Assembly (NCBI GenBank): GCA_963737265.1 | Contig: CAVTRY010000008.1 | Coordinates: forward strand, 1,446-65,445 | Length of the DNA: 64,000 nt | DNA from: an uncultured delta proteobacterium | GTDB lineage: Bacteria; Myxococcota_A; Polyangia; Fen-1088 | Reading direction: 5' to 3' | In this document: piece after piece, positions 360 through 23,073 of the stretch | Numbering within the stretch: position 1 is the stretch's first letter | Layout of the letters: each line of letters begins with the position of its first letter | The notes under the pieces: generated by a model | What the model saw: the letters and a program-made list of their open reading frames with translations, nothing else | Databases searched by the model: none | Told to the model about the DNA's origin: nothing | Position numbers and translations under genes: made by a program

Positions 360-361
360 GC

Positions 362-890: not shown

Positions 891-1844
891 TCAGAAGCAG
901 CAGCCGGTAACCGGCAGAGCCCAGCAGACTACGGTGCTGTCGGTTCTCACCGCGCAAGCTTCGCCGCCGGTACTCAGCGAAGTGAATATGCCCTGCGGGA
1001 CCGATGGTGGGTTCAATGCTGCCAGCCCCCAGCAAACAATTGTGCCGTCGGTTCTAAGACCGCATGCGGAACCCGTACCAACGCTGACCGAGGTGAAAGG
1101 ACCTCCGGGAATGCCACCTAGGACGCCACAAACCATCGAGCCGTCCGTCAGTATCCCGCAAATGTCGCTGTCGCCTGCGCTGACCGCGGCAAAAGAACCA
1201 CTCAAGGCGGTCCCTGCCCAAATTCCCCAGCAAGCCATACTCCGGTCCATGCGCAAGCCGCAGGCAAACCCATTGCCCGTGCTTACGGAGACGAACGTAC
1301 CCGAAGGCGAAGGAGGCGCCACGCCCCAGCAGGCGACCGTACCGTCGCCCCGCAGGGCGCAGGTACCAGAGCCCCCAGCACTCACGGCGACGAAGCTTCC
1401 GCCTGGCGACTCGATGTCGCCGGCCGAATCGTCGCCCCAGCATTCGATGCCGCCGTCGGTCTTCAGCCCACAGGCAAAGTCACCGCCTACACTAACCGAT
1501 GCGAACGAGCCATCGGGTGCGATCGCCTGGCCAACCTGATTAGCTCCCCAACAGGCAACTGTTCCATCGGTCTTAACTCCGCAGTCAGTGCCATAACCGA
1601 CGCTCACCGAAACGAAGGTCGCTCCGTCGGGCGGCCCCTGGATATAGGTGCTGCCGTCGAGGAGGCTACTTGGCCGCAGTAGATCCCCAGAAGTAGCAAG
1701 CGCAGTTTCGCCAGCGCCAGCGAAGGTGTCATGGACAAGAGAAGAAGAAGCGTCACCTGATGCGTCAGAACGAGTCCCAAGCGGAGGTGTACAGGCAAGG
1801 GTGAATAGCGCGAGCAAGACGGATCGTCTCATCGGTGTAATCAT
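891..1844 (-). CDS. RCC1/BLIP-II-type repeat lipoprotein
   Basis: N-terminal signal with lipobox (LLALFTLAC). Six or more repeats of the ..DG(T/S)(V/I)ACWG.. type, each followed by FxSVSxG..xxCG(L/V), typical of RCC1-like beta-propeller blades. Confidence 0.7.
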   Translation of the reverse strand: MITPMRRSVLLALFTLACTPPLGTRSDASGDASSSLVHDTFAGAGETALATSGDLLRPSSLLDGSTYIQGPPDGATFVSVSVGYGTDCGVKTDGTVACWGANQVGQAIAPDGSFASVSVGGDFACGLKTDGGIECWGDDSAGDIESPGGSFVAVSAGGSGTCALRGDGTVACWGVAPPSPSGTFVSVSTGNGFACGLRMDRSMACWGIWAGTALSGSFAAVSAGDSDICGILTDGSMVCGVLGGIPGGPFTSVSVGTGSACGLRTDGTIVCWGLAALNPPSVPQGIFTSLSTGGEACAVRTDSTVVCWALPVTGCCF

Positions 1845-2072
1845 AATAGCTTACGGTCGGGGAGCGACACCAATCAAGAGATTATTCTCCGCTCCGTCGG
1901 ACACGTGATGCCCTAGCATGAAGCAGCCCGACAATATGCCGCATCAGGTCAGGCCTGCTTTCACGAGAATGGAAAGCTCTCTCCGGTGTTCTGGGACTAT
2001 GCACGACGGGCCATTCCAAGCGACCTGCTGGGGTGGCCAAAGGCCTTCTCCTCGCTTTAGGTACGAAAGTAT

Positions 2073-4103
2073 TCAGGGGGTGCAACACAGAATAGCATGT
2101 GGGGCACCTGGGTAGCCGTCGGTTGAGTAATAGATCGTACTCAACCCTGCGACGTATTGGCCGCTCGGACATTGCCCTTTATAGAACGTATTGTCCCAAT
2201 CGGGACTTGAGTATCCTTGCGAATCACCTGAGTAGAAAATCTCCCGGTGACAGTTGTTGGTGGAGTGAGTAGTCACAGCCAACGGACAGCATAGCAACGT
2301 GTCCACATAGCCAGGTGTCGAGAAGTACGGGGCGGCATCTTGCGCAATTCCCTGTACGATTTCGTTCGGTCCACACTCTCCCTTTACAAAGCGATAGTCC
2401 CATTCCCCTGTATTTGTCGGCGGCACACGATTGTCTGCACCATGAAAGGACACTGCGTGACACTGGGAAGGCGTGCTCAATGTCTTACCAGCCGGGCCAC
2501 ACTGGACCGCATGTGCCTGGTTCGTTCCATTCGGGTACTTGGAAAGTCCGGTCACATAAGAACCTTGGTAGCACTCCCCTTTGTACTCGTACGGCGCCCA
2601 GTCGGCCGACAGCGGATTCCACTGGTACCCATAGTTCGTTAGCCAAAAGTTGCGAGGCGTGTTCCCAATATAAAAGGCTCCATTGGATGAATTGACTAAC
2701 CCGTACTCGACCGGATCTGTCGAACCTGTGCCGCTGGACTGGGTGCCTTGCCCTAGCACGAAGGTGTTGTCGGAGCCCTTGGATGTGACGACGAAGGAAT
2801 TGAAAAAGGACAAAGCTTGGCCGCTTCCCGAACGAGGGTCGGCCCCGCTCCCCATGCGCGTGAGCCAACTGGAATTGGTAGCCGGCATTTCCGCGATTTC
2901 ACCGCCAATTTGGAAACCGTCGGCTGAAGACTCGAAGCCACCACTGAAGTCGGACAGAGAAAAGTAGCCTAGCGTTCCCCCATAGGAACTCGGCTGCCCA
3001 GGATTAAACATGACATAGACGTACCACCCGGGAGGATTAGCCGAGCTGCTCCTGTAGATTTGGACCAACATTGATTGCTGAACTCCGCCTGGCACGCCCG
3101 TAGGAAGCAGAGCGTCTGGCGTTATAATGGAGGTTGTTCCCGGAAGTTGATGCCAGGTGAGTGTATTATGATATCCATTGTTTGTTGCGAGAACTTTGAA
3201 GTGCAGCTGGGTCGGCGCGCTTCCGTACTCTGTCGCGACCATCGAGCCGACCTCGATCGTCCTCATACAAGGAACGAGCGATTGCCCATTAGTGCCCACA
3301 GTCTTATCGTTATCGCAGGTATAGATCCCCTGCGTATTAATGCCACATCCACGCATCAGCCATAGCTGGGTTATGCTATGGTAGTATGTCACTTGTGGCG
3401 TTCCATAAGGAACCCCAGGCGTATATAGCATCCATTGTGTATTGGCTGTGGTAATACCATTGCCAGTGCCCCCCTGTTCCGAATTCTCCACGGCATGTAC
3501 ATACCCGGGAAGCTCAGGAAGGTCGGGGCATTCATAACCAGGCGTAGCAGGTGGGGCCGCGTGGCTCAAAGTTCTGTTTAGGAAAGCATCAAGTCCTCCG
3601 GCAGCTTGAATCTCCGCGAGGGTCTGGCGAAGAATGGGCACCGTCCCTTGCGGACAGACTCGGGGTTGGCCGTGGACGTCCGGGTATCCGTTGAACCAGA
3701 ATTCGTCTGAAGGTACAGGAGAAACGACAAGCAAACTCGTCACACTATCCGGCGGTTCGGGCGGCTGAGGGAGCACTGTATAGGGAGTTCCTTTTGCGGC
3801 CTGCACCTTGGCATCGGGCGTGGCGAAATAGTCCACGCAATCAATGGTCTCTCCCCCCTTGGTCAAGAAGGAATGTCTTATGTCGGCTGGGTGGTAACGA
3901 GCGTCTAGATACGTCTGAATCTTCGAGGTCTCCATCGGACTGAACGTCGAAGCGCTTGGCGTCTGACTTTGACTAGGTTGAGCGGTGGTTATCGGGCTCG
4001 TCACTGTGCTTCCCAGCTCCTGAAAAGGACGTTCGACATCGACACCGTCTGCCCTCGCTGCAAAACCCCGCTGCGCTGCTGAGCGACAATTACATCTCCC
4101 CAA
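2073..4103 (-). CDS. neprosin-like (DUF239, glutamic peptidase-type) domain protein with C-terminal Cys-rich repeats; probably 5'-truncated
   Basis: ..GGETIDCVDYFATPDAK.. resembles the neprosin activation-peptide motif (IDCVD), and ..TIEVGSMVATEYGS..LHFKVLATNNGY.. resembles the neprosin core. The C-terminus has three repeats of YKGEC/VKGEC/YKGQC ... LCC. The first ~30 codons of the ORF overlap an IS91 fragment (4011-4076). No signal peptide remains. The first internal Met is at 3935. Confidence 0.5.
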   Translation of the reverse strand: MGRCNCRSAAQRGFAARADGVDVERPFQELGSTVTSPITTAQPSQSQTPSASTFSPMETSKIQTYLDARYHPADIRHSFLTKGGETIDCVDYFATPDAKVQAAKGTPYTVLPQPPEPPDSVTSLLVVSPVPSDEFWFNGYPDVHGQPRVCPQGTVPILRQTLAEIQAAGGLDAFLNRTLSHAAPPATPGYECPDLPELPGYVHAVENSEQGGTGNGITTANTQWMLYTPGVPYGTPQVTYYHSITQLWLMRGCGINTQGIYTCDNDKTVGTNGQSLVPCMRTIEVGSMVATEYGSAPTQLHFKVLATNNGYHNTLTWHQLPGTTSIITPDALLPTGVPGGVQQSMLVQIYRSSSANPPGWYVYVMFNPGQPSSYGGTLGYFSLSDFSGGFESSADGFQIGGEIAEMPATNSSWLTRMGSGADPRSGSGQALSFFNSFVVTSKGSDNTFVLGQGTQSSGTGSTDPVEYGLVNSSNGAFYIGNTPRNFWLTNYGYQWNPLSADWAPYEYKGECYQGSYVTGLSKYPNGTNQAHAVQCGPAGKTLSTPSQCHAVSFHGADNRVPPTNTGEWDYRFVKGECGPNEIVQGIAQDAAPYFSTPGYVDTLLCCPLAVTTHSTNNCHREIFYSGDSQGYSSPDWDNTFYKGQCPSGQYVAGLSTIYYSTDGYPGAPHAILCCTP
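4011..4076 (+). pseudogene. IS91-family transposase C-terminal fragment
   Basis: Plus-strand translation SQLLKRTFDIDTVCPRCKTPLR matches SQLLKNTFEIDTVCPRCKTPLR of the intact transposase at 24731-26236. It is cut off by the IS21 left end at 4077. Confidence 0.75.
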
Positions 4104-4188
4104 AGACGACAGCTACGTCGCCCCGCTTTGAGGCGCGACGGTGACCGTGAGGTAGACCTCCAAGCCCGCAAGCGGGCAGGAGGCACCT

Positions 4189-5688
4189 TTGAAGCCGGTC
4201 ACCGACGCCCAAGTGAGGCGTTTGATGGAAGAGATGAGCAAGATTGGAAAAGTAGGCCAGGCCGCCATGAAGGCGGGCATGGACCGGAAGACAGGGCGGC
4301 GATACATCGCCGCGGGCAAGCTACCGTCGGAGCTACGGCAGCCGCGGTGGTGGCGGACGCGCCCTGACGCGTTCGCCGAGGACTGGCCAGCCGTGGCCAA
4401 GTTGCTGGAGGAAACGCCTGGGCTGGAGGCTCAGACGGTGCTGGAGCTGCTGGAGGCGAAGCAGCCAGGGCGGTACAACGAGAGCCATCTTCGGACAATG
4501 CAGCGGCGAATCCGTCGCTGGCGGGCCGAGCATGGTCCTGCGCGTGAGATTTGGTTCACGCAGGCGCATCGGCCCGGTGAAGCCGCGCAAACCGACTTCA
4601 CGTCGACGGCGGAGCTTGGTGTGACGATCGTGGGCCAGCTATTTGTGCACCTTTTGTGCGTGACGGTGCTGCCGTACTCGAACTGGCAATGGGCGACCGC
4701 GTGTCTGTCGGAGTCTCTGGCAGCGCTTCGGCGAGGGATCCAGTCGGCGCTGTTCCAGCTTGGGCGGGTGCCGCGATACCACCAAACCGACCACTCGACG
4801 GCGGCGACACATCAGATCGCTCGCGATGCGGAAGATCGCACTTTCAACGATGAATACAAGGCGGTCATGCGGCACCTCGGAATGGAGCCACGAACTACAG
4901 CCGTCGGGGCCAAGGAACAAAACGGCGATGTGGAGGCCAGCAACGGCGCGCTCAAGCGTCGGCTTGAACAAGCGCTGCTGGTGCGTGGCAGCCGCGACTT
5001 CGCGGACCAAGACGACTACGAACGCTTCGTAGCCAAGGTGGTCCGCAAAGCCAACGCTTCGCGAGGCCCGCGCGTCGCCGAGGAGATCGAAGCCATGCGG
5101 CCGCTGGTGGTGGAGCGTTTGCCGGAGTACGCAGAAATGACGGCACCTGTGGCGTCGACGAGCACCATCCGGGTCAAGTCGTGCGCCTACTCGGTGCCGT
5201 CGAGGCTGATCGGCGCACGGGTGAGAGTCCGCGTGTTCGAGCACCGAATCGAGGTGTACTACGCCGACAACTTGGAATTGGCCTGCGACAGGCTGCGAGG
5301 CAAGACCGCGCGCATCGACTACCGGCACGTCATCTGGTCTTTGGTGCGCAAGCCGGGCGCGTTTTCTCGCTACGTCTACCGAGAAGAGCTGTTTCCAAGC
5401 GTGACTTTCAGGCGGGCATACGACGCGATCCAGGCGACCAAGCCTGGAATCAAAGGCGACGTTGAATACCTGCGCATTCTTCACCTGGCCGCCAGCACGA
5501 TGGAAGCCGATGTCGAGCAAGCGCTCACGACTCTGCTTGCCGATGGGACCATCTTGACGGCGGATGCAACCAAGAAGAGATGCACACAGGCGACGGACAG
5601 TACCTATCCACCGAGCGTCCCCGCGCTCGAAGCACCGCTGGTCGATCTCGCGTCCTACGACCTGCTCCTCGAACAGGTGGCATCATGA
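4189..5688 (+). CDS. istA: IS21-family transposase IstA
   Basis: 499 aa with an N-terminal HTH and a DDE integrase core (..AAQTDFT.., ..YHQTDHSTA.., ..KEQNGDVEASNG..). TTG start preceded by AGGAGG. Followed by istB. Confidence 0.85.
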   Translation: MKPVTDAQVRRLMEEMSKIGKVGQAAMKAGMDRKTGRRYIAAGKLPSELRQPRWWRTRPDAFAEDWPAVAKLLEETPGLEAQTVLELLEAKQPGRYNESHLRTMQRRIRRWRAEHGPAREIWFTQAHRPGEAAQTDFTSTAELGVTIVGQLFVHLLCVTVLPYSNWQWATACLSESLAALRRGIQSALFQLGRVPRYHQTDHSTAATHQIARDAEDRTFNDEYKAVMRHLGMEPRTTAVGAKEQNGDVEASNGALKRRLEQALLVRGSRDFADQDDYERFVAKVVRKANASRGPRVAEEIEAMRPLVVERLPEYAEMTAPVASTSTIRVKSCAYSVPSRLIGARVRVRVFEHRIEVYYADNLELACDRLRGKTARIDYRHVIWSLVRKPGAFSRYVYREELFPSVTFRRAYDAIQATKPGIKGDVEYLRILHLAASTMEADVEQALTTLLADGTILTADATKKRCTQATDSTYPPSVPALEAPLVDLASYDLLLEQVAS

Positions 5689-6533
5689 CCAACGTCTCCG
5701 TAGACACGGTCAAGCCGAGCGCGCTCGACGCTCTGCTGGTGCTTCTGCGCGCGCTCAAGCTGCCTGCCTTCACCCGGCACGCCGAGGAGATCGCGATCAA
5801 GGCCAGCCGCGAGGGGTGGACCTTCAGCCAATACCTCCAGCACCTGGCCGAACTGGAAATCGAAGAGCGCCGAACCCGTCGCATCGATCGCGCGCTTCGC
5901 GATTCGGACCTTCCCACGGAGAAAACCCTGGCCACCCTGGAACGTGGTCGGCTGTCACCCAAGGTGATGAAGCAGATGGCGAGCCTGTGTGAGGGTGGCT
6001 TTGTCGAACGTGGGGAGAACCTGCTCGTCTTCGGACTGCCCGGCCGAGGCAAAAGTCACGTTGTGGCTGCCATCGGCCACGAACTCATCCGGCGCGGCTA
6101 CCGGGTCCTCTTCACGCCGACCTTCGCGCTTGTCCAGAGGCTGCTGGCCGCCAAGCGCGACCTTCGCCTGGAACGAGAACTGGCCGCGCTCGACATCTAT
6201 CACGCCGTGATCCTCGACGACATCGGCTACGTCCAGCAGAGCCGCGATGAAATGGAGGTCCTTTTCACCTTCCTGGCCGAGCGGTACGAACGCAAGAGCG
6301 TCCTCATCACCAGCAACCTGGTATTCAGCGATTGGATCCGCATTTTCAAGGATCCCATGACCACCGCCGCCGCCATCGACCGACTGGTCCACCACGCGGT
6401 CATCCTTGAGATGACCGGCCCCAGCTACCGCAGCGAAGAAGCACGAAAGAGAGGCGTCACCACCCCAGCGACAACTACGACAACTACCGATCAACCAACG
6501 ACAACTACCCCCGACAACAATGGGGCGATGTAA
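5685..6533 (+). CDS. istB: IS21-family helper ATPase IstB
   Basis: Walker A GLPGRGKSH and Walker B VILDDIGY, plus the IstB signature ..LITSNLVFSDW... The start at M36 of the ORF overlaps the istA stop (ATGA). Confidence 0.9.
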   Translation: MTNVSVDTVKPSALDALLVLLRALKLPAFTRHAEEIAIKASREGWTFSQYLQHLAELEIEERRTRRIDRALRDSDLPTEKTLATLERGRLSPKVMKQMASLCEGGFVERGENLLVFGLPGRGKSHVVAAIGHELIRRGYRVLFTPTFALVQRLLAAKRDLRLERELAALDIYHAVILDDIGYVQQSRDEMEVLFTFLAERYERKSVLITSNLVFSDWIRIFKDPMTTAAAIDRLVHHAVILEMTGPSYRSEEARKRGVTTPATTTTTTDQPTTTTPDNNGAM

Positions 6534-6569
6534 TTGACGTCACCGGGTGAATGTAGTTGACGTCCAGCA

Positions 6570-7213
6570 CCGAGGGACCGCGCGACACCGCGACACTGCT
6601 AAATGGGGGTGGTCCGGTGGGTTTCAATCCACGCGCGGGCCCGAGGGACCGCGCGACCAACCCTCGCAAGATTTCTCCACATGCTAAGAAGTTTCAATCC
6701 ACGCGCGGGCCCGAGGGACCGCGCGACCGAGCCTTCCGGCCGCCCGACAAGCTGCCAGGAGTTTCAATCCACGCGCGGGCCCGAGGGACCGCGCGACGCT
6801 CTGGCACGATCCCAGCGCGCCCTGATCAAGAGTTTCAATCCACGCGCGGGCCCGAGGGACCGCGCGACTTGCCCGAGTTTTTGCCCCGGCATCATGGGCT
6901 GGTTTCAATCCACGCGCGGGCCCGAGGGACCGCGCGACGAGCTGTCGTCGACGTGGCCGACCCAGCATTGATGTTTCAATCCACGCGCGGGCCCGAGGGA
7001 CCGCGCGACAGTTGAATGAAAGCGTCGGTGACTTCATGCACTTGTTTCAATCCACGCGCGGGCCCGAGGGACCGCGCGACACGGATCGCGACGATACTCT
7101 GGCAATGTCCAATCGTGTTTCAATCCACGCGCGGGCCCGAGGGACCGCGCGACCTGTTGGCGTCTACTCTGCTGGACTCGGGCGCAAGGTTTCAATCCAC
7201 GCGCGGGCCCGAG
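6570..7213 (-). CRISPR. CRISPR array, trailer-side segment (type I-C repeat)
   Basis: Composition: a 17-nt partial repeat (6570-6586), 8 full 37-bp repeats GTTTCAATCCACGCGCGGGCCCGAGGGACCGCGCGAC starting at 6621, 6691, 6761, 6832, 6902, 6973, 7044 and 7117, then a 25-nt partial repeat (7189-7213). Nine spacers of 33-36 bp. The minus-strand repeat ends ..GGATTGAAAC, typical of I-C. Confidence 0.95.
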
Positions 7214-7319
7214 TGTTGCCACGCAAACAGGCTGATGGGTTTGCGGTCCAGATAGCAGATGGGCATCGCGAAGGTGACAGGGTGCCTGTCACTTCCGTGA
7301 TGCCCATCATTGGGTCGGT

Positions 7320-7544
7320 TCAGAAGCAGTCGTCGTGAGGGCCGTCGGGGACAGATTCCCAGACGGCGTCAGGGGGCCTGGGTGTTTCGATCCCGCGCAA
7401 CGCCTGCAGGTCGGCGATGGCATCGCCATGGGCACGCCAGATGGCTGCGATGGCCCGCTCGAACACGTCGACGATGGTCAGGGCATACGATGCGTCCATT
7501 GGAGGCAGATGGATCTGGGCGTGTGGTGGCGGTGGGCGCCTCAT
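7320..7544 (-). CDS. small hypothetical protein (transposon cargo, translationally coupled to the TniB-like gene)
   Basis: 74-aa ORF whose start overlaps the TniB-like stop. No recognisable motifs. Confidence 0.3.
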   Translation of the reverse strand: MRRPPPPHAQIHLPPMDASYALTIVDVFERAIAAIWRAHGDAIADLQALRGIETPRPPDAVWESVPDGPHDDCF

Positions 7545-8356
7545 GCTGGATCCCTGGGTTCGGAGTCGACGATACGGGTGATGGCATCGCGCTCGACGAG
7601 TTTTCGCTTTCTGCGGGCGGCGTCGCGAAGGGCGGCGGTGGCGAGCCGGTCGAGGTCGCGCAAAGATCCGGCGGCGGCTTCGTGGAGCATGGCCAAGGCG
7701 TCGGCCGTGACAAGCTCGCGGTCGCAGCCTGATTGTTTGAGTCTGGAGCGAATGTAGTCGGCGGTGTCGTCCGGGGTCAGGGGCGCGACATTGAGCCGGG
7801 TGTAAATGCGCGAGTACAAGGATCGATTGCGACGGAGGACGAGCCTGTCGGAAAGTTCTGGCAGGCCGACGAGGACGAGGGACAGGAGCGCCCTACTGTC
7901 CCACTGGTAGTTCAGCAAAATGTGCAGATGATCCAGCATGTCTTGGTGGAGCAGGTGGGCCTCATCCAAGAGGAAGACCGGGTGAACACGCTCGCGGCCA
8001 AGATCTTCGACGTGGGAGGAGACGGCGAAGAAGAGAGCCGCGGCGGCGGCGGAAGGCGCGAGCCCCAAGGCGAGACAAAGCTGGCGATAGAAATCGCGGC
8101 GGCCGAGAGTGGCGTTGTGGCAGTAGGTCAGACGGAAACCAGTTTGCGGCAGCCTGTGGCGCAAGGCACGCAGGACGCAGGTTTTGCCGGCGCCGGGATC
8201 GCCAGTGAGGATAATGGACGCACGCTCATGGAGCGCCTCGCACAGCTCGTGTACCAGGGCCTCCTTGGAAGGCGGCATCCACAGGTCGACGTCGGCAATC
8301 TCCTTGGAGAAGGGGGCGCGTTCGAGGGCGAAGTGGCCGAGATAGGCAGGCGTCAT
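7541..8356 (-). CDS. AAA+ ATPase, TniB/ExeA-like transposition helper
   Basis: Walker A GDPGAGKT and Walker B VFLLDEAH. 271 aa. ATGA overlap with the upstream DDE transposase. Confidence 0.75.
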   Translation of the reverse strand: MTPAYLGHFALERAPFSKEIADVDLWMPPSKEALVHELCEALHERASIILTGDPGAGKTCVLRALRHRLPQTGFRLTYCHNATLGRRDFYRQLCLALGLAPSAAAAALFFAVSSHVEDLGRERVHPVFLLDEAHLLHQDMLDHLHILLNYQWDSRALLSLVLVGLPELSDRLVLRRNRSLYSRIYTRLNVAPLTPDDTADYIRSRLKQSGCDRELVTADALAMLHEAAAGSLRDLDRLATAALRDAARRKRKLVERDAITRIVDSEPRDPA

Positions 8357-9717
8357 CGGTCACCTCCTTGTGGCGAAGGGTTTCGGCCGACGGCTCGGTC
8401 GAGCAGCACGGAGGGCGGATCGAAGGGCACCGGTCGCGAGGCTTTTGTCGCATGTCCCCCGCCACGATTTGAGCGCTTTCGGCGGGCGTTCTTAGCAGGG
8501 TCGACGGGATGAAGAGGCAGCGCCTTTCCCTCGTGCTCGACCCACGGAGCTTCGTTCATGTCGACGAGGCAACGGGCCACCATGACCAGTCGCCCTGCGA
8601 GGAAGCCCTGGTCAAGCTCCCAGTCCGTACCCTCCAGTGGCAGCGTGGTATCTCGGCGTACGCGGCGGCGCACGCGCACGGTCAGCGCCTCGCGCAGCTT
8701 GTGCTCGTCAAAGCGGTCGGTGGGACGTTCGGCTGCCTCGTACACGCGCGCGGGCGCGCGGCCGAGCAGCGACGCGTGCGGCGCCTTGTGGTAGTGCTCG
8801 TCGAGAAAGGCCCACAGTCGCACGTTGATGTCGTGTAACGACGACACCTGGCCAAGAAAGTCGAGACATCCCTGGCGCAGGGTGCGCCAGAAGCGCTCCA
8901 TTTTTCCACGTGCCTGCGGGTCGTAGGGACGCGCGTGCAACAGGGAGACGCCCATGCGCGCACAAGCCGTGGACAAGATGTCGCCGCGATAGGTGCTGCC
9001 GTTGTCGAGGTACAAGGCATCGGGTGGCCCATGCCTGCGCAGGGCGCGCACAAACATGCCGAGCATATCCACCTCGCGCTCGGTGTGGTGCGCTTCCAGC
9101 GCGATGATGAAGCGAGAGGCATCGTCGAGAAGTCCGTGAATTCGCACCGGCATGTTTTTGCCGTCGACCGAAATCGCCGGGCCGTAACAGACATCACCGT
9201 GCCAGAGCGCCCCAGGCCGCTCGGCTTCCCAGCGCAGCCTGGTCTTCGGCCCCTTGCTATCGCGCATGGGAATGCGGTCCAGTCCCTCGTCGGCGAAAAG
9301 CCGCCGCACCGTCGAGGCCGACACCGCGTCCTTGCTCAATCGTCCGTCGAGGGTCAGGGTGCGAAGGATCAAGGGCACCGAAGCCGAGGGGTGCTCGCGC
9401 CGGATGTCGCACAGAAGCGTGCGCTGCTCCGCTGTCAGCTCCTGCGCGCGTCCACTATCGCTGCGTGGTTCGGGGCGCAGGGCATCTAGGCTTCCAGCTT
9501 TGTAGGCGTAGTACCAACGCTCCAGCGTCGGAATGGAGAATCTGCGCGTGCTGTCCGCTCCCGGCGGCCGGTAGCGCTCGGCGGCCAGATCTTTCAGCGT
9601 CGCCGCCAACTCTCCGTGGTCGAGATCTCGCCGGGTGAGTGCGCCGACGATCTCGCTGCGAAAGATGGCTACCTCCTCGGCATGGTCCTTGGGCTTCAGG
9701 CTTTGTAGGTCGGTCAT
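8353..9717 (-). CDS. DDE (rve) transposase, TniA/TnsB/MuA-like
   Basis: Integrase-core triad context WHGDV.., ..YLDNGSTY.., ..GKMERFW... Start set at M21 (MTDLQSL), with GAAGGGA upstream. The maximal ORF extends to 9777. Confidence 0.8.
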   Translation of the reverse strand: MTDLQSLKPKDHAEEVAIFRSEIVGALTRRDLDHGELAATLKDLAAERYRPPGADSTRRFSIPTLERWYYAYKAGSLDALRPEPRSDSGRAQELTAEQRTLLCDIRREHPSASVPLILRTLTLDGRLSKDAVSASTVRRLFADEGLDRIPMRDSKGPKTRLRWEAERPGALWHGDVCYGPAISVDGKNMPVRIHGLLDDASRFIIALEAHHTEREVDMLGMFVRALRRHGPPDALYLDNGSTYRGDILSTACARMGVSLLHARPYDPQARGKMERFWRTLRQGCLDFLGQVSSLHDINVRLWAFLDEHYHKAPHASLLGRAPARVYEAAERPTDRFDEHKLREALTVRVRRRVRRDTTLPLEGTDWELDQGFLAGRLVMVARCLVDMNEAPWVEHEGKALPLHPVDPAKNARRKRSNRGGGHATKASRPVPFDPPSVLLDRAVGRNPSPQGGDR

Positions 9718-9834
9718 GGTGTCCCTTCTGCAATCGCGGTGTGCGATGCAGGTAAAGCCATGCTTCATTCCGGCCACGCCTGGCAGGGATCTTCGCGGGT
9801 GGGCGAAGTCCCAGCGACGGGAAAAGTCTGATGG

Positions 9835-10467
9835 TCATCGCATAGCGAGCGTCGCTCCTTGGAAAGCCCGGGTTGCCACAGACGCCTCGTTCGAGGGCGG
9901 CGGCCCGAGTGAAGCGAGTCCCAACGCCGCCCGCTCAGCCGCCTGCCGTGCGGTGAAATCCGACGGCGAAGCGCGCAGTCCGGACAGCAGCGTGCCCGCA
10001 CGAATGGCGCGAATCCAGCGCCGCAACGTGGCCCAACCGGTGATGGCGGTCTCGCCGATGATCGTCCGCGGACTCGTCTGTCGCCGCACTTCCGCAATAG
10101 ACAATTTCTGCACCCCGAACAAGGCCAACGCCCACCCGACCGCAGACGAGGTGTAAAGCCGTCCCGGTATCGTTTCGCAAGGAACCACGGTGAGCACGGC
10201 GCCGCACTTGCAGAGAAAGCGACGGACGAGCAGCAAGACCATCTTGGGCACTTGCCCCGGTCCTGGCGGTCCCCAAAACTGTCTTGAGCGCAGCCCGTGC
10301 CCGATGATCCCAAGACTTGCTCCCGGCGGACAGCCAGCTCGTCCACATAGAGGGCAGGTGCTCGGTCTGAGCAAGTCCACGCCTGGCACTGCCGCCAACC
10401 AGAGCTTGACCCCGACCTTGCCATGCACGATTGTCTGAAGCGCTCCGTTCCTTTCGTTTCCTTTCAC
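9835..10467 (-). CDS. hypothetical zinc-ribbon protein (transposon-borne)
   Basis: 210-aa ORF with CPLCG ... CKCG cysteine pairs and a balanced composition. Two other overlapping frames look like GC artefacts. The function and the start codon are uncertain. Confidence 0.35.
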   Translation of the reverse strand: MKGNERNGALQTIVHGKVGVKLWLAAVPGVDLLRPSTCPLCGRAGCPPGASLGIIGHGLRSRQFWGPPGPGQVPKMVLLLVRRFLCKCGAVLTVVPCETIPGRLYTSSAVGWALALFGVQKLSIAEVRRQTSPRTIIGETAITGWATLRRWIRAIRAGTLLSGLRASPSDFTARQAAERAALGLASLGPPPSNEASVATRAFQGATLAMR

Positions 10468-10700
10468 GTCGGGTGCGGAGCACGACCAGGCAGGGTGGTG
10501 GATACGCCCTCCTGGTCACCTACATAGCTGCGGCCAGCGAGATGCCGATGCTCCTCCTTTCCCTGCCGCCACTACCCTGATTCCCCGCAAGCCGCCATGA
10601 ACATTTCCACGACGGGAATGATGGCGATTGTCCAACCGATGCCATCACGGAGGGAGCACAATCTCCCGCCGCTCAGCCGCACTCACACCGCCTCGGAACA

Positions 10701-13700
10701 CCGAGGGACCGCGCGACCTGGCGCTATCGGTGCGCTGGACTGGCACGTCCGAGGTTTCAATCCACGCGCGGGCCCGAGGGACCGCGCGACGTGTGCCGCC
10801 TTTGTAGTCAACAGGTAGCTCAACTGTTTCAATCCACGCGCGGGCCCGAGGGACCGCGCGACGCTGGCAAACTGCGGACACTGCTTCTCGATTGCAGGTT
10901 TCAATCCACGCGCGGGCCCGAGGGACCGCGCGACCCCACGCGTGCTAGGTGGCATCGTCAAATAGGCTGCGTTTCAATCCACGCGCGGGCCCGAGGGACC
11001 GCGCGACAATCTATTTTGCTCCAAGTGCGGCCGAGGCATGGGTTTCAATCCACGCGCGGGCCCGAGGGACCGCGCGACGGTTTCCTCTTCGGACTCGTCG
11101 GCGCCCTGCTGGTTTCAATCCACGCGCGGGCCCGAGGGACCGCGCGACCCTGCCGCTGACGCCTCTCGGCTCTCCGTTGCTTTTGTTTCAATCCACGCGC
11201 GGGCCCGAGGGACCGCGCGACCTGCCCGACTTGCAAGGGTGCGTGCACGGTCCTAGGTTTCAATCCACGCGCGGGCCCGAGGGACCGCGCGACCTCGACG
11301 ACGTGAGCTGGTTCGTCTGCGAGGAGGTTTCAATCCACGCGCGGGCCCGAGGGACCGCGCGACCTTCACCGAGTGGCACAGCACCAGAACAGACGAGTTT
11401 CAATCCACGCGCGGGCCCGAGGGACCGCGCGACCACCAAGGGTCCGCCGATGTCATGCGCCGTCGCGTTTCAATCCACGCGCGGGCCCGAGGGACCGCGC
11501 GACTTGAAGACAGGCGGCACACGCCGATCATTTTGCATAGTTTCAATCCACGCGCGGGCCCGAGGGACCGCGCGACGACTACAAAGGCGGCACACTGCTA
11601 GCGCCTGACGGTTTCAATCCACGCGCGGGCCCGAGGGACCGCGCGACGTGCGCGGCGATTTGCATGACGTGGAATTTGCAGTTTCAATCCACGCGCGGGC
11701 CCGAGGGACCGCGCGACTTGCTGGCGCCGTTACCATTCAGTATGCGCGCTGGGGTTTCAATCCACGCGCGGGCCCGAGGGACCGCGCGACCCCGCCCGAT
11801 GTTCTGGCATAGTTCAGCGCAATGGTTTCAATCCACGCGCGGGCCCGAGGGACCGCGCGACCCCGTGGAGTATCCCCCCGCTATTGCGACGTTTGTTTCA
11901 ATCCACGCGCGGGCCCGAGGGACCGCGCGACGTTATTCACGGGCGTGAATGACGTTCCAACGTCGGAGTTTCAATCCACGCGCGGGCCCGAGGGACCGCG
12001 CGACAGCCTGCCGTTGAAGTGCAACTAGCTATCCCGCTGGTTTCAATCCACGCGCGGGCCCGAGGGACCGCGCGACCGCCTGGAACGAATGTAATCCCTG
12101 CGGGATTGTGGTTTCAATCCACGCGCGGGCCCGAGGGACCGCGCGACTGACCCACGCGACGATAGACGACGAGCGATCACCGTTTCAATCCACGCGCGGG
12201 CCCGAGGGACCGCGCGACTGGGATACTGGGAGGTGTCACCATGGTGACAAAGTTTCAATCCACGCGCGGGCCCGAGGGACCGCGCGACCCGATGTGTACC
12301 CACTGCCGCCGCTTTCGCCTGTGTTTCAATCCACGCGCGGGCCCGAGGGACCGCGCGACTCGCTAGTTAGCATGTGGAACCTCTGCACAGTAGTTTCAAT
12401 CCACGCGCGGGCCCGAGGGACCGCGCGACACCCGTTGTTGTGGCGTTAGTTGCAAATATGCTTGGTTTCAATCCACGCGCGGGCCCGAGGGACCGCGCGA
12501 CGATCCGCTTGTCAGCACCCGGCTGGGGTAGGTAGGTGTTTCAATCCACGCGCGGGCCCGAGGGACCGCGCGACTACTGTGCCGAGGTACCACATGCTAA
12601 CTAGCGATGTTTCAATCCACGCGCGGGCCCGAGGGACCGCGCGACTGAGCAGCGGCGCGAGGAGCGCACGCGCGATGTTGTTTCAATCCACGCGCGGGCC
12701 CGAGGGACCGCGCGACATGTACTTCTCACCAAGGTACGGCCCGTGTTGTTTCAATCCACGCGCGGGCCCGAGGGACCGCGCGACGGTCGAACTCCGTGGC
12801 GAAGTAGCGGTTCTCCATCACGTTTCAATCCACGCGCGGGCCCGAGGGACCGCGCGACCCGTGGACCAGCCACCATGCGGTGCGGACCAAGGTTGTTTCA
12901 ATCCACGCGCGGGCCCGAGGGACCGCGCGACTCCAGCTAGGCAACCAGAATGCTTTCCAGCGCCCGCGTTTCAATCCACGCGCGGGCCCGAGGGACCGCG
13001 CGACGAGGTGGAGATCCGCCGAGCCGTCTCGCTCATGGTTTCAATCCACGCGCGGGCCCGAGGGACCGCGCGACACGAAACGACGCTTTACCCACGTGTG
13101 CCCCGGACCAGTTTCAATCCACGCGCGGGCCCGAGGGACCGCGCGACTCAATTTGGCCCACTACCGCAACAGTGCTGACCTTGTTTCAATCCACGCGCGG
13201 GCCCGAGGGACCGCGCGACTCGGGCTGTGGCCGCCGGTTGCCTTGCTCCACGAGTTTCAATCCACGCGCGGGCCCGAGGGACCGCGCGACCAGGACGGCC
13301 TCAAGCGGGTGGACATCGAGACCTGGTTTCAATCCACGCGCGGGCCCGAGGGACCGCGCGACCCTGCTGGGGCGCTTTGGCAGCTCACGCTAGACGTTTC
13401 AATCCACGCGCGGGCCCGAGGGACCGCGCGACACGTTGATGCTCGCAAACAACTACAAACAGCAGGTTTCAATCCACGCGCGGGCCCGAGGGACCGCGCG
13501 ACGTCGCCGTGAACAGGAGTATCTCGACAGTGCCAGGTTTCAATCCACGCGCGGGCCCGAGGGACCGCGCGACTATTTTACGGTTTTCAGGCTACGACCG
13601 ACAACCTAGTTTCAATCCACGCGCGGGCCCGAGGGACCGCGCGACGTCCGTCTGACTGATGACGTCGATGTTCATCTGGTTTCAATCCACGCGCGGGCCC

Positions 13701-14856
13701 GAGGGACCGCGCGACTGTGCCCCATCGAGGGACTGTCGAGATGGACGCAGGTTTCAATCCACGCGCGGGCCCGAGGGACCGCGCGACCGGTCATCGTCTC
13801 AAACGCGAATACATCGTAGTCGGTTTCAATCCACGCGCGGGCCCGAGGGACCGCGCGACCCGGCCGGTTACCACTTGTCCGGCACGCAAGCTGTTTCAAT
13901 CCACGCGCGGGCCCGAGGGACCGCGCGACCGCTTCGGCTTCCGCCGCAACCGGAGTTGAAACAGGTTTCAATCCACGCGCGGGCCCGAGGGACCGCGCGA
14001 CTAGAGGGATGGTCAAGGGTGATGGGCACACCATTGTTTCAATCCACGCGCGGGCCCGAGGGACCGCGCGACGTCAGCACAGCAGGCGCGGTAACAGCAT
14101 CAAATATAGGTTTCAATCCACGCGCGGGCCCGAGGGACCGCGCGACGCCAATAGCCAAAGCAAGCGCGTCGGCCCTGGTGAGTTTCAATCCACGCGCGGG
14201 CCCGAGGGACCGCGCGACGGGGGATTGACGTGCTCAAGATGTCCAAGGAAAGGTTTCAATCCACGCGCGGGCCCGAGGGACCGCGCGACGGGTCTTGGCA
14301 GTGTGACCAACGATGCGCAAACGTTTCAATCCACGCGCGGGCCCGAGGGACCGCGCGACCCCACAGCATCTCGCCCTGCCACCGCGTGAAGTATCGTTTC
14401 AATCCACGCGCGGGCCCGAGGGACCGCGCGACCATCATCTTCCAACGCTAAGGAGCTGACCCATGTTTCAATCCACGCGCGGGCCCGAGGGACCGCGCGA
14501 CGGCGCAAGTTCCCGACGGCGCTCATTCGCTCCGATGTTTCAATCCACGCGCGGGCCCGAGGGACCGCGCGACGGCATCAACGCCCTGGCCACGCTCTCC
14601 ACCGGCGAGTTTCAATCCACGCGCGGGCCCGAGGGACCGCGCGACCGCTGCGGGCCTTGTCGGATTATTGGGGTCAGCATGTTTCAATCCACGCGCGGGC
14701 CCGAGGGACCGCGCGACATGGAGCGTAAGCTCCTTCTGCAGATGCTCACGAGTTTCAATCCACGCGCGGGCCCGAGGGACCGCGCGACCCGCTCAGAAAA
14801 GCGTCTTTGCCGACTCCATGTTTCAATCCACGCGCGGGCCCGAGGGACCGCGCGAC
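10701..14856 (-). CRISPR. CRISPR array, leader-side segment (type I-C repeat)
   Basis: Starts with the remainder of the split repeat (10701-10717), then 58 full 37-bp repeats (first at 10754, last at 14820-14856). 58 spacers of 31-37 bp. The leader and cas2 lie directly beyond 14856. Confidence 0.97.
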
Positions 14857-15039
14857 GCACCCCCTTAGAATACAACGAATTCCGCATATCTACGAACGGT
14901 TCGGCGCGAGGGCTGCTTTTTAAGAGCAATTGCGCCACCGTCGCGGGCGGCGCCATGGTTGTACTCTTTGGTTTTCATAGAGCTATCTGACAGGCGCGAA
15001 CCGATCGGGGATTCCATGTCCACTCTACCTTCGCGCGCC
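14857..15039 (-). promoter_or_regulatory. CRISPR leader
   Basis: 183-bp non-coding stretch between the cas2 stop and the first repeat, visibly more AT-rich than its surroundings (..TTAGAATACAACGAATTCCGCATATCTACG..). Its position fits the I-C layout. Confidence 0.6.
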
Positions 15040-15330
15040 CTACACGATAAGGGAGCCCTCGAAGTCGATGCTCGGTTTGATGCCGTGGTGTTCGGCCTGC
15101 GCAAGGTCGTCTTGGCCCAGGAAATAGAAGCGCAGACTGTCCTCGTCGGGATCAAAGAGACGCAGAAGCTCGCCACGTAGCTTGATCCACAGGGCGTCCG
15201 GCAATTTGCACTCGAAGACCGAGAACTGCACGCGTTGCCCATAGCTCTCGCAGGCTTTGGCAATACGACGGAGGCGGCGACGCCCCTCCCTGCTTTCGGT
15301 GGAAACATCGTAGGTGACCAGAACGACCAT
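15040..15330 (-). CDS. cas2: CRISPR-associated endoribonuclease Cas2
   Basis: 96 aa beginning MVVLVTYDVS.., with ..RVQFSVFEC.. Lies beside cas1 and the array. Confidence 0.9.
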   Translation of the reverse strand: MVVLVTYDVSTESREGRRRLRRIAKACESYGQRVQFSVFECKLPDALWIKLRGELLRLFDPDEDSLRFYFLGQDDLAQAEHHGIKPSIDFEGSLIV

Positions 15331-15339
15331 GACCCTATC

Positions 15340-16365
15340 TCAACCAGCCGGATGAAATGGAGGAAATGTATCGAGATCCCCACGAAGCGTTCGCGCCAGC
15401 AGTCGCGCCTCAACATGCGGAACCAATCCCCAGGCTATCTCGTCGCCAAGCAAAGGATGGACGATGCTGGTCGCCTTGCGTTCCTGGTGTGTCTTGATGA
15501 CCAGTTTACGCGCCTCGTCCGTCAATTCGACGGCGCCACTTTCGGTGTGTCGGAAGTCGTCCGAGCGAAGCTGTTGATTGTTGACCATGGACAACACCAG
15601 TCGATCGGCCACCAGGGGACGCAAATGCTCCATCAAATCGAGCGCCAGGCCAGGTCGACCTGGCCTGAACGCGTGAAGGAAGCCAAGCGCTGGGTCCAGG
15701 CCATTGGCTTGAAGCGCGGACAAGCAGTCGTTCATCAGCAATGCGTACGCGAATGAGAGCAAACAATTCAGCGGATCGCGCGGTGGCCTGCGCTGGCGAG
15801 TGGTCCAGCGAAAGTCGTCGCTTTGCTGCCTGACCATGTCGCCGAAGACCTCGAAATATCGCGCTGCCGCCTCGCCTTCGCTGCCGCGCACCTGGTCGTG
15901 GGTCTCCATCCGTTGCGGATCGCTCATCCGCAAAGCCCGCGCAGCATCGCTCAGACGCACGGCCGCCTCGCCTTCGGCTTCCCGTGCTGCCCTTTGCAAG
16001 ACGTGACGTTGGTTTGCGATCTTGCCTTGAACGACGCTCTTCGCGATTGCCAGGCTGCGCCCCACATCCAGATGGCATTGCGTCTGGTTCAACCGCAAGA
16101 GTGCGCCGCTTTGGTTTGTGCCCTCGACTCGCCCACGAAAGCGCCCATGTTCGGTAAGGAACGAAATCCCGACTCCACGTTCGAGGCACAGGTACATCAA
16201 TTCCGGGCTGACGTAGACATGCCCCAGGCAGACGATGGATTCCAGGTGGTGCACGGGAACGCGCAGCCGTTGCTCGCGCTCGACTCGAACCGCGACCGTT
16301 TCGCCCTCCTTCAGCAAGGCCGTGTCCGCGGTCGTCACGTACAGCGTGTTGAGCAGAACAGCCAT
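15340..16365 (-). CDS. cas1: CRISPR-associated integrase Cas1 (I-C type)
   Basis: ~342 aa when started at M21 (MAVLLNTLYV..), directly after the cas4 stop. Lies between cas4 and cas2. The maximal ORF extends to 16425. Confidence 0.85.
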   Translation of the reverse strand: MAVLLNTLYVTTADTALLKEGETVAVRVEREQRLRVPVHHLESIVCLGHVYVSPELMYLCLERGVGISFLTEHGRFRGRVEGTNQSGALLRLNQTQCHLDVGRSLAIAKSVVQGKIANQRHVLQRAAREAEGEAAVRLSDAARALRMSDPQRMETHDQVRGSEGEAAARYFEVFGDMVRQQSDDFRWTTRQRRPPRDPLNCLLSFAYALLMNDCLSALQANGLDPALGFLHAFRPGRPGLALDLMEHLRPLVADRLVLSMVNNQQLRSDDFRHTESGAVELTDEARKLVIKTHQERKATSIVHPLLGDEIAWGLVPHVEARLLARTLRGDLDTFPPFHPAG

Positions 16366-16367
16366 AG

Positions 16368-16991
16368 TCACAGCTCCCGCATATAGGCCAAGAGCCGCCC
16401 ACGCGTTGGCAAGGACGGCATGCACAGGGTTCGTAAGCTACAACGCTCGCACTTCTTGCCCGGCTCTGGCTCAGGTGTTCGCCCATCTTGCAGCATGGAT
16501 GCGATGGCGGCGATGGCCGATTCCGTCTCTTGGCGAAGCCCCGCATCGAACTGCACCTCGCGCCGCCGCCGGGACGCGCCGAAATACAGCGCACCCGCCG
16601 GCACGACAACCTTCAGCATCTCCTCAAGGCACAGCGCCTGTGCATACAGTTGCAGCTCGGCATGGCGAAAGTTGTTGCGCACGCTGCGCTTGTACTCGAC
16701 CGGAAAGGGCCGGCCCGGCGGCGGATAGCCCAGATCGGAGAAGAACACCACCATGTCCGCTTTGCCGGCCAGCCCCAACCGGTCGCACTTGAGCGCCAGC
16801 GCCCGTGACTTCTTCATTCCCGGACGCTGTTCGAGTCCTGGGAGATCCACCTGCTCGTGCATTTCCTTCCCCTTGGCGGTGAGGACATTCTCCGCCCAAA
16901 GCCCCTCAAGGTGGATCAGTCCACACTGGCGCCGGCAGAAGCTCCAGTGCTCGATCGCAGAGATCGAGACGAGGCGTTCGTCGTCGTCCAT
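16368..16991 (-). CDS. cas4: CRISPR-associated exonuclease Cas4
   Basis: 207 aa with an N-terminal Cys (..HWSFCRRQCGL..) and a C-terminal Cys cluster (CERCSLRTLC), as in RecB-like Fe-S Cas4. Confidence 0.85.
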   Translation of the reverse strand: MDDDERLVSISAIEHWSFCRRQCGLIHLEGLWAENVLTAKGKEMHEQVDLPGLEQRPGMKKSRALALKCDRLGLAGKADMVVFFSDLGYPPPGRPFPVEYKRSVRNNFRHAELQLYAQALCLEEMLKVVVPAGALYFGASRRRREVQFDAGLRQETESAIAAIASMLQDGRTPEPEPGKKCERCSLRTLCMPSLPTRGRLLAYMREL

Positions 16992-17041
16992 GCGGCAGAA
17001 CCGATCGAAACGGTTACTGCCGCATGGCGAAGCGTGGGCGA

Positions 17042-17911
17042 TCAGAAGCCATCGATCTCTTCAGGCACTAGGCCGTCGAGTGTGGCAAGGGTGTAGCTGC
17101 CATCGGCCTTCACCGCCAAAGAGCGATGAACCTTGGCCGAAGAATACTGGCCGGACTTGCAGTTGTGGGGCCACCAAATCACCTTCGCGACCTCCATGCT
17201 GCCTTCGGGGCGAGCCGACGAGGCGTCGTTCTCGAATACCTTGGGCAGGAGTGCCTTGATGGTCTGAGCATCGGCGTCCGTGAAGCCAGTCCGCTCAGCG
17301 AGCTGTGGATTCATGGATCCAAACGTCACATATACGCCCTGGTCCACCCGATGTTTCATGCCCATGGTGTCCGAGCCGCGTTTTGAGCCATCGCCTTCAC
17401 CGCTCACACTCTTGGTGATCTGGGTACTGGTGACGCTGACGGGCTCAAGGCTGAATGCGGACTGAATCGTGACAGGGCCTCGGATACCGATCGACACGCC
17501 GGCATCGCCTTCCCCGTCAGCGCGCTTCTTCTTGTCTGCCTTGTAGGCGAACAGTTGACCAAAGGTGCGGACATCTAGCCACGTCTCGCACGCGCTTTTC
17601 GCGATCTTGGCGGCGTCCTTTTCCTTCGCAAGGACGGTATCGGCGCGGTCGCGCAGACTCTTGGCTTTGTCCATCTTGCGATCATCCGACTGAACGAAGA
17701 TGGCTTGCCCGGATCGCTCTCCTTCCGGGAGTGCCTTCCAGCGTTCCATCAAGCGATCACGGAGCTTTCGCTTCAGGCAGACATCGGTGATCTCGCCGAG
17801 GCCTGAATAGTCCGTCCGCGGACGGTTTCCATTGAGTGGATCTCCGTTGGGATTGGCGTTGCGGACCCGAAGGATGATGGCGAAATCGATCTTCTTGTTG
17901 AGACTTGGCAT
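17042..17911 (-). CDS. cas7: Cas7 (Csd2), type I-C backbone subunit
   Basis: ..IDFAIILRVRNANPNGDPLNGNRPRTD.. is the characteristic Csd2 N-terminus. The ATG at 17911 is preceded by GGAGA. Confidence 0.85.
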   Translation of the reverse strand: MPSLNKKIDFAIILRVRNANPNGDPLNGNRPRTDYSGLGEITDVCLKRKLRDRLMERWKALPEGERSGQAIFVQSDDRKMDKAKSLRDRADTVLAKEKDAAKIAKSACETWLDVRTFGQLFAYKADKKKRADGEGDAGVSIGIRGPVTIQSAFSLEPVSVTSTQITKSVSGEGDGSKRGSDTMGMKHRVDQGVYVTFGSMNPQLAERTGFTDADAQTIKALLPKVFENDASSARPEGSMEVAKVIWWPHNCKSGQYSSAKVHRSLAVKADGSYTLATLDGLVPEEIDGF

Positions 17912-17928
17912 GGGGGATCTCCTTGATG

Positions 17929-18339
17929 TCACTCGGCGGTAGCGGGAGTTGATTCGGTGTCCTCAGGTTCATGGCGGAGGGCTTGGCGTTGGCAGTGGTA
18001 GCCAAGCAGAAACTCGCCGGAAAGCGGACGATCATTGGTAAAGGCTTCCTTTTCATCCTGGGGCGAGAAGGCGCCAAGCAGTTGGTCGAGAAGCTTCTCC
18101 ATGTTCCAGAGGAAGCCTGCCCTCGAATTGCGAAGGCGTGCCTTGTACGGGGTGAGGGAGAGTTCGATGGTTCGCCAAGTGCTGTAGGGGTGATCTGCAA
18201 ACCGCTGCAGCAAGCGCGCGGCGGTCGTATCGCGATTCTCGCCCGCTACGTATAGGGCGCGACTTTCAAGGTGTTCCGCGGCGGCCAGCAAGCGACCGTA
18301 AAGGTAGTCCCGGGTCTTCCTGTCTTCTTGGAGAGCCAT
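17929..18339 (-). CDS. candidate Cas11c small subunit from an internal in-frame start within cas8c
   Basis: In-frame ATG at 18339 ([18 protein letters not shown]..) preceded by AAGGAAAGGGG about 7 nt upstream, giving ~136 aa. Type I-C systems are known to make Cas11 by internal translation of the cas8c 3' end. Confidence 0.45.
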   Translation of the reverse strand: MALQEDRKTRDYLYGRLLAAAEHLESRALYVAGENRDTTAARLLQRFADHPYSTWRTIELSLTPYKARLRNSRAGFLWNMEKLLDQLLGAFSPQDEKEAFTNDRPLSGEFLLGYHCQRQALRHEPEDTESTPATAE

Positions 18340-23063: not shown

Positions 23064-23073
23064 CCCCACCACC

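Follow-up and report, generated by a model that had tools for sequence, protein, structure and literature searches.

A mobile three-gene element in the loop of a type I-C CRISPR repeat: probably a chance insertion into tolerant DNA

When a transposon lies inside a clustered regularly interspaced short palindromic repeat (CRISPR), was the repeat its target, or did the transposon land there by chance? The question is raised by a stretch of 64,000 nucleotides (nt) from an uncultured delta proteobacterium (contig CAVTRY010000008.1 of assembly GCA_963737265.1, positions 1,446 to 65,445; hereafter, the window), in which a transposable element of 3,487 bp splits one repeat of a type I-C CRISPR array. 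An earlier reading of the same DNA (here, the original prediction) had described the element and suggested that repeats or hairpins might be its preferred targets. We conclude that this is most probably an ordinary transposon insertion that occurred by chance and was retained in tolerant or neutral DNA, and not a case of CRISPR targeting. The element itself is intact, has moved recently, and belongs to a widespread insertion sequence (IS)-like family with three genes, to which this subfamily adds a small open reading frame (ORF).

The array spans positions 6570 to 14856 on the minus strand and holds 67 spacers; 66 of its repeats are intact, one is split, and one is truncated, which agrees with the approximately 68 type I-C repeats counted previously. 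Its 37-nt repeat reads GTTTCAATCCACGCGCGGGCCCGAGGGACCGCGCGAC on the plus strand and GTCGCGCGGTCCCTCGGGCCCGCGCGTGGATTGAAAC on the minus strand (ending in ATTGAAAC), and 66 perfect copies are present versus 0 matches expected by chance. The element occupies positions 7214 to 10700 and leaves the first 25 nt of the split repeat at 7189 to 7213 and the last 17 nt at 10701 to 10717 (both on the plus strand). The last 5 nt of the former piece (7209 to 7213) and the first 5 nt of the latter (10701 to 10705) both read CCGAG and are the two copies of a target-site duplication. Together, the pieces amount to 42 nt, that is, one 37-nt repeat plus 5 bp, as had been proposed. The spacing across the element is 3,561 nt (7189 to 10754, minus 4 nt; the preceding unit, from 7117 to 7189, measures 72 nt), and subtracting the element and the duplication restores a normal unit. 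The predicted fold of the repeat is a hairpin made up of a 7-bp stem, 2 additional pairs, and a tetraloop. Its energy is -18.3 kcal/mol (z = -2.0) for RNA and -10.5 kcal/mol (z = -2.2) for DNA. The duplicated CCGAG corresponds to repeat nt 13 to 17, i.e., the tetraloop plus one base, which places the insertion at the loop of the stem, where the original prediction had put it.

The boundaries of the element are delimited by other copies. It starts with TGTTGCC and finishes with GGAACA; its genes are on the minus strand, 10700 being its left end (the orf210 side) and 7214 its right end. Two loci from a related deltaproteobacterial metagenome-assembled genome (MAG), L001 and L002, show 93% nucleotide identity over exactly element positions 1 to 3487 and have unrelated flanks, and several stand-alone metagenome contigs start or stop exactly at the element termini. 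Another locus, L098, is 100% identical over 3,057 nt and has a different, protein-coding right flank. Because this identical copy occupies another site, this exact element has moved recently.

The right terminal region (7214 to 7310) comprises the terminus TGTTGCCACGCA, GATGGGCATC (at 7258), and GATGCCCATC (at 7299), motifs that are conserved in L081, L004, and L005; the left terminal region (10600 to 10700) comprises the terminus …CGCCTCGGAACA, GATGCCATC (at 10638), and a CCATCATT half-site. The inverted subterminal motifs reported earlier are recognizable as GATG(N1-3)CATC, which is enriched in the element and occurs 13 times in the window; six occurrences are inside the element, three of them less than 100 nt from an end. 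Judging from this layout, which resembles a multiple-site arrangement, the motifs are probably transposase-binding sites. At the left junction, positions 10690 to 10712 read CCTCGG-AACA-CCGAGG, in which the left-terminus hexamer is the same as the target and a small inverted repeat thus extends across the junction. This inverted repeat is absent at other insertion sites and is probably a coincidence.

All four ORFs of the element are encoded on the minus strand, in the same direction as array transcription, and their content (an rve transposase, an ATPase, a 74-amino-acid [aa] ORF, and a zinc-ribbon protein, with neither TniQ nor a resolvase) matches the earlier description. The DDE (rve) transposase gene (8353 to 9720) encodes 455 aa from an ATG, with an alternative GTG start at 9777. 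The protein contains the Pfam domains HTH_32, rve, and rve_3, and its D/D/E residues (in HGD, LDNG, and KMER) line up with the motifs of the catalytic triad in the retroviral integrase core. Downstream lies the gene for an AAA_22 (ExeA-like) ATPase (7541 to 8356; 271 aa; Pfam AAA_22, 3e-25), whose Walker A (GDPGAGKT) and Walker B (LLDEAH) motifs are invariant in the alignment and which is presumed to act as a target-capture and regulatory partner of the transposase. Its AlphaFold2 (AF2) model is poor, with a predicted local distance difference test score (pLDDT) of 59.9, because the alignment is shallow (at least 72% identity), and a profile search of PDB sequences returned generic P-loop matches only.

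The first gene of the family is orf210 (9835 to 10467), which encodes a 210-aa protein with a zinc ribbon (CxxC…H…CxC) and a helical domain. Homologues of orf210 are found upstream of the transposase gene in every related locus covering that region, and the zinc-ribbon cysteines and histidine are invariant in the alignment. Given this conservation, the core of the family comprises three genes, and the element is not the minimal two-gene unit that it had been taken for. Profile searches revealed weak matches of orf210 relatives to DUF6431 and Zn_ribbon_ISL3, and a distant plasmid homologue, encoded just upstream of its DDE gene, is annotated as a "DUF6431 domain-containing protein." The AF2 model of orf210 is confident (pLDDT, 87.8; predicted template modeling score, 0.84) and yielded no significant Foldseek match in PDB (best E value, 0.94) or BFVD (best E value, 0.24); on this model, orf210 may represent an uncharacterized fold conserved across a very large IS family. 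A role for orf210 as a TniQ/TnsD-like target selector is unsupported: it does not match TniQ (PF06527) even at an E value of ≤10, nor any other Pfam family, and no fold match emerged from PDB or BFVD, although PDB includes TniQ-containing structures. The fourth ORF, orf74 (7320 to 7544), whose start overlaps the ATPase stop, is present in close relatives only, with tblastn matches of 61 to 89% in L001, L002, L004, L005, and L007 and gene calls of 69 to 75 aa in L081 and L092 to L095. It matches no protein family in Pfam, NCBIfam, or PHROGs.

The question of targeting was addressed by tabulating the insertion sites of other copies. A transposase scan of one genome per GTDB species provided 80 loci that were kept, and a right-end scan combined with look-ups of close relatives added 38 close-subfamily loci from metagenomes, for a total of 118 other loci. 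Duplications were recognized at 23 insertion sites, all with TGTT…AACA ends, so that the proposed ends and duplication are reproduced not only in L001 and L002 but across the family. The duplication length is 5 bp at 15 sites, 6 bp at 5 sites, 7 bp at 2 sites, and 4 bp at 1 site; a 5-bp duplication, previously read as a fixed signature, is therefore only one of four lengths in use. The 23 target sequences are mutually unrelated and display no excess of dyad symmetry (3 to 10 of 20 symmetric pairs, about the random level).

Contact with CRISPR arrays is rare. Among the 80 genome loci, only L002 and L031 directly adjoin an array, and the 38 metagenome loci, with approximately 22 distinct right flanks and 10 left flanks, include none with CRISPR flanks. 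Put as shares, arrays adjoin about 2 of the 25 distinct close-subfamily sites and 2 of the 118 other loci in the whole family. The three array-associated insertions also differ in position (the repeat loop in the window; a spacer, 9 nt from the next repeat, in L002; and spacer nt 34 in L031) and occur in both orientations, with L002 opposite to the window copy. An array-targeting class would have most copies in arrays at a fixed position and orientation, which is not what the family displays. The idea that repeats or hairpins are preferred thus finds no support in these unrelated, nonpalindromic sites, an outcome that the original prediction had itself named as the mark of a chance hit. Many copies, including those in L001, L004, L038, L094, and L096, are nested inside other IS elements, a pattern that fits retention in dispensable DNA.

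Several individual loci deserve description. In L031 (positions 1 to 245; a Gemmatimonadales MAG contig), the left end of a family member abuts spacer nt 34 of an I-C-like array with the repeat GTCCCTCCCGTCGTCGTGCGGGAGGGTGGATTGAAAC; the right flank is unrelated, reflecting either a rearrangement or a chimeric assembly. In L038 (positions 3580 to 9250; Sorangium sp. So ce513), a family member sits within another IS, which in turn splits an array of 36-nt repeats; a stretch of approximately 700 bp that takes in the first repeat region occurs in duplicate, with one copy on each side. CRISPR-like repeats seen in L006, L036, L042, L049, L053, and L079 were rejected as tandem or coding repeats. Finally, L070 and L071 (each at positions 5038 to 8609; MAG contig CAVXQZ010000003.1) are identical direct copies located 27 kb apart and arranged as CCGAC[IS]CGCGG … 27 kb … CGCGG[IS]CCGAC, the outer flanks both being CCGAC and the inner flanks both CGCGG. 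Between them lie ordinary genes, for a glycosyltransferase and a radical SAM/SPASM protein, and one for another transposase. A cointegrate of a circular donor with a chromosome would be expected to look like this, and the pair hints, as a single case, at replicative transposition without a resolvase.

In the course of events that we envisage for the window copy, the transposase would bind the subterminal GATG…CATC motifs and expose terminal CA-3' ends, and the ATPase would capture the target DNA. The transposase would then join the ends to the target with a 5-bp stagger straddling the tetraloop of one type I-C repeat, and gap repair would duplicate CTCGG/CCGAG. The site would not have been specifically chosen, in keeping with a family that inserts into many unrelated sequences, and copies would be kept where they do little harm, as in CRISPR arrays and other IS elements.

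Two small statistical oddities remain that weigh against a chance insertion: a second hit by the same subfamily on the orthologous array of a related genome, and a bond shared with an IS21-family element. The first concerns L002, of which positions 1 to 10898 represent the orthologous type I-C locus of the related MAG, with a leader-cas2-cas1-cas4 segment that is 91% identical to that of the window at the nucleotide level. Its array contains at least 104 repeats, whose sequence differs by 2 nt from the window repeat, and its copy of the element lies in a spacer with a 4-bp (CATG) duplication. No spacers shared between the two arrays were found; this, together with the opposite orientation and the location in a spacer, identifies L002 as an independent second insertion. 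The MAG contributes only two copies to the 80 genome loci. Under a uniform-genome null, in which arrays make up 0.1 to 0.2% of a genome, two or more array hits in 60 to 100 other sites have a probability of ~0.002 to 0.02.

One alternative that such a double hit brings to mind is that the subfamily loosely prefers type I-C arrays as landing pads without any fixed attachment position, possibly because arrays are transcribed or form R-loops, because Cas1-Cas2 or host bending proteins are bound there, or because the zinc-ribbon protein orf210 recognizes them. We regard this as unlikely. The independent insertions into orthologous arrays of two related genomes, the L031 copy that abuts an I-C-like array in a different phylum, and the low probability under the uniform null all speak for it, and precedents for array targeting exist in the cyanobacterial Tn7-like elements and phage ΦAP1.1 (PMC11837452). 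However, the excess vanishes if arrays amount to 1 to 2% of the DNA that tolerates insertions, in which case two or more array hits in 60 to 100 other sites (P, ~0.12 to 0.6) are unremarkable. The share of array-adjoining sites given above is low in the close subfamily and in the family alike. Position and orientation relative to the repeat, moreover, differ in all three cases, unlike the fixed site and 82% array occupancy of the Tn7-like family, and orf210 shows no similarity to TniQ or TnsD in sequence or in fold.

The second oddity is found at the other end of the array. An IS21-family element of 2,493 bp (4077 to 6569, plus strand) encodes istA (4189 to 5688) and istB (extending to 6533), possesses terminal inverted repeats, and has its ends confirmed by a stand-alone 2,493-bp contig (L121). 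Its right end, …GTCCAGCA, directly abuts the truncated repeat at 6570 to 6586, which begins CCGAGGGACC / CCGAGGGACCGCGCGAC. The end of the array at 6570 calls for one correction to the earlier description: it is a repeat truncated by the IS21-family element and not a natural array end. This junction falls at the same bond of the repeat (nt 17|18) as the junction 10700|10701 of the 3.5-kb element, a coincidence with a chance of ~0.014 to 0.03 (1/71 to 2/71) that was spotted after the fact. The left flank of the IS21 element is non-CRISPR and lacks a duplication, which implies a later deletion or rearrangement. In the last 200 nt of a metagenome contig, L120 (Logan SRR28012276), the same IS21 is inserted inside the orf210 gene of another copy of the 3.5-kb element, indicating that the two elements cocirculate and nest in each other.

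From the shared bond, it could be argued that DDE transposons with an AAA+ target-capture ATPase have a structural hot spot at the tip of the hairpin that this palindromic, GC-rich repeat forms, and that two unrelated elements were joined at one bond for this reason. IS1397 and ISKpn1, of the IS3 family, insert in the loops of repetitive extragenic palindromic (REP) elements and thus set an example. The duplication in the window does cover the tetraloop of the predicted hairpin. In addition, Mu and IS21 transpososomes bend target DNA severely, according to work cited in PMC10045372, which makes a structural hot spot at a palindrome tip conceivable, if unproven. We nevertheless consider this quite improbable. 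The other 22 duplication sites lack excess dyad symmetry, L002 and L031 are inserted in spacers rather than loops, and the shared bond is a single coincidence, noticed post hoc, at an IS21 copy whose left flank points to a history involving rearrangement.

A combined form of these ideas, in which DDE transposons with an AAA+ target-capture ATPase favor type I-C arrays and, within them, the hairpin tip of the repeat, would explain the double hit on orthologous arrays, the array-adjacent copy of the Gemmatimonadales, and the IS21 element at the identical bond. It seems to us unlikely to be correct, and that either arrays or hairpin tips are true hot spots is, overall, doubtful. If it were true, IS elements would have a way of eroding CRISPR memory that is driven by structure or transcription, unlike the cyanobacterial Tn7-like elements, whose targeting of arrays is guided by proteins. 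Last, it is scarcely credible that the junctions are an assembly artifact, i.e., a chimeric join at a repeated element: metagenome contigs of the family often do have mismatched flanks (e.g., L083/L089, L100 to L104, and L031), but a chimera would not yield flanks that rebuild one repeat exactly with a 5-bp duplication and normal unit spacing.

The insertion, which we read as a chance event retained in tolerant DNA, would have consequences for the array. The leader (183 bp; 14857 to 15039) adjoins the array, with cas2 and cas1c beside 14857. Since the leader and the cas operon flank the right end, the array is transcribed from right to left, from the leader toward 6570. The 3.5-kb element has nine spacers on its trailer side. 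Because type I-C processing needs the repeat hairpin and the Cas5c hairpin is destroyed in the split repeat, the spacers at 10718 to 10753 and 7154 to 7188 should yield no mature CRISPR RNA. The eight more distal trailer spacers would depend on read-through across 3.5 kb, and no effect is expected on the leader, the cas operon, or the 57 spacers on the leader side that keep an intact repeat at either end. Scans for promoters and terminators in the element and the leader scored no higher than expected from shuffled sequences. For phage ΦAP1.1, integration into repeats is known to silence the spacers downstream (discussed in PMC11837452). IS insertions in CRISPR arrays are already known, and the event in the window is, in that respect, ordinary. 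Its value lies mainly in showing how long arrays of the myxobacterial type are fragmented and shortened by IS elements, the IS21 element having removed the old array end.

The cas operon and leader are intact and nine trailer spacers are separated from the rest, as stated in the original prediction. The operon (15040 to 23114, minus strand) consists of cas2, cas1c, cas4, cas7c, cas8c, cas5c, and cas3. Cas1c, Cas7/Csd2, Cas8c/Csd1, Cas5c, Cas4, and Cas2 score above the curated cutoffs of their NCBIfam models, including the subtype-specific ones, while cas3 passes only the Cas3 HD-domain model and is below the cutoff on the helicase-core and subtype I-G models. The operon content, the repeat ending in ATTGAAAC, and the 5' stem-loop identify the host locus as type I-C. 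A comparison of the 67 spacers with the masked window and all loci revealed only partial, GC-rich matches at inconsistent places, the best covering 25 of 33 nt. Among them, the spacer at 6728 to 6760 matches L014 (orf210 region) at 25 of 33 nt and L006 (transposase gene) over 16 exact nt. Targeting of the element by spacers was rejected, since the positions and strands of these matches are inconsistent and GC-rich chance is the probable cause.

The surroundings of the CRISPR-Cas locus are rich in IS elements. Just past cas3, the window contains an IS91/ISCR-like transposase gene (24731 to 26236, minus strand; 300 bits versus a curated cutoff of 925). Upstream of the IS21 element, positions 891 to 4103 (minus strand) carry two large ORFs of 676 and 317 aa. 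The former has no NCBIfam family match, and the latter is repeat-rich, with internal 45-nt repeats at 915 to 1364.

The family to which the 3.5-kb element belongs is very abundant. Of 8,000 candidates scored, 3,327 transposase clusters were assigned to it at an E value of ≤1e-10, and 328 stretches were confirmed in GTDB genomes. Many of the clusters are on contigs of ~3.4 to 3.8 kb, as expected of a multicopy element. The annotations of family proteins in their sources are generic ("DDE-type integrase," "ExeA family protein," and "DUF6431"), and no published description of the family was found in the literature searched (DUF6431; AAA_22 with rve; IS481 with an AAA+ ATPase). The present analysis provides a clean definition of this family in terms of its ends, duplication, and three-gene core.

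How does the element compare with known systems? The best NCBIfam transposase model is IS481 (NF033577), which scores 177 bits over residues 69 to 345, below its cutoff of 224. Like IS481, the element has an N-terminal helix-turn-helix plus an rve core and a variable duplication length, but IS481 is a single-gene element of ~1 kb, whereas the present element is 3.5 kb long with a conserved ATPase and a zinc-ribbon gene. Its resemblance to IS21 lies in the pairing of a DDE transposase with a dedicated ATPase helper whose gene follows downstream, in the presence of multiple subterminal repeats, and in its TG…CA ends. In contrast to IS21, its ATPase is an AAA_22 and not an IstB_IS21 protein, it has an extra conserved upstream gene, and the IS21 models score far below their cutoffs (transposase [IstA], 27.7 bits versus 160; IstB-type helper, 24.7 bits versus 200). 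The neighboring true IS21 served as a positive control and scored 190.6 bits with IstB_IS21 (Pfam, 4e-56).

The original prediction, accurate in its description of the insertion, had labeled the element Tn7/Tn5053/Mu-like, which is too specific and partly wrong. The Mu-like part has support: the transposase matches PHROG 310 ("transposase"; 1e-36) and the ATPase matches PHROG 296 ("DNA transposition protein"; 3e-27), the counterparts of proteins A and B in Mu-like phages. Since remote-homology clustering underlies the PHROG families, these matches indicate relatedness rather than phage membership. With the module of Mu-like (B3/D3112-type) phages, the element has in common this A and B homology, TG…CA ends, and a commonest duplication of 5 bp. 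The L070/L071 arrangement, a single case that looks like a cointegrate, would fit replicative transposition. The element differs in lacking phage genes and a Mu-transpos_C match, in a duplication that is not fixed at 5 bp, and in the length of its transposase (~455 aa versus ~690 positions in the phage profile). The Tn7/Tn5053 part does not stand. Tn7 and Tn5053/Tn402 likewise combine an rve transposase with an ATPase, and the window copy has TGT…ACA ends, subterminal motifs, and a 5-bp duplication, although the family range is 4 to 7 bp. However, the four ORFs have no match to TnsA, TniQ (PF06527), TniB (PF05621), Mu-transpos_C, or a resolvase in Pfam and NCBIfam, the element has room for these four ORFs only, unlike the Tn5053/Tn402 gene set, and there is no site-specific targeting in the family.

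Two further comparisons concern the insertion site. The element resembles IS1397 and ISKpn1 as a DDE insertion sequence at the loop of a repeated palindromic element, but those elements are strictly specific for palindrome loops, and the present family is not. The cyanobacterial array-targeting Tn7-like transposons are likewise small, cargo-free, and located inside CRISPR arrays, with 18 of 22 elements (82%) in arrays at a fixed spacer position beside a recognized repeat, as set by TnsD (Chacon Machado & Peters 2025, PMC11837452). They use a TnsAB-TnsC-TnsD machinery, whereas only 2 of the 118 other loci of the present family adjoin arrays, with varying position and orientation. By these comparisons, the element falls outside Tn7, Tn5053, IS21, and IS481 and appears to work in the manner of Mu and IS21 transposons, its transposase being assisted by an ATPase helper.

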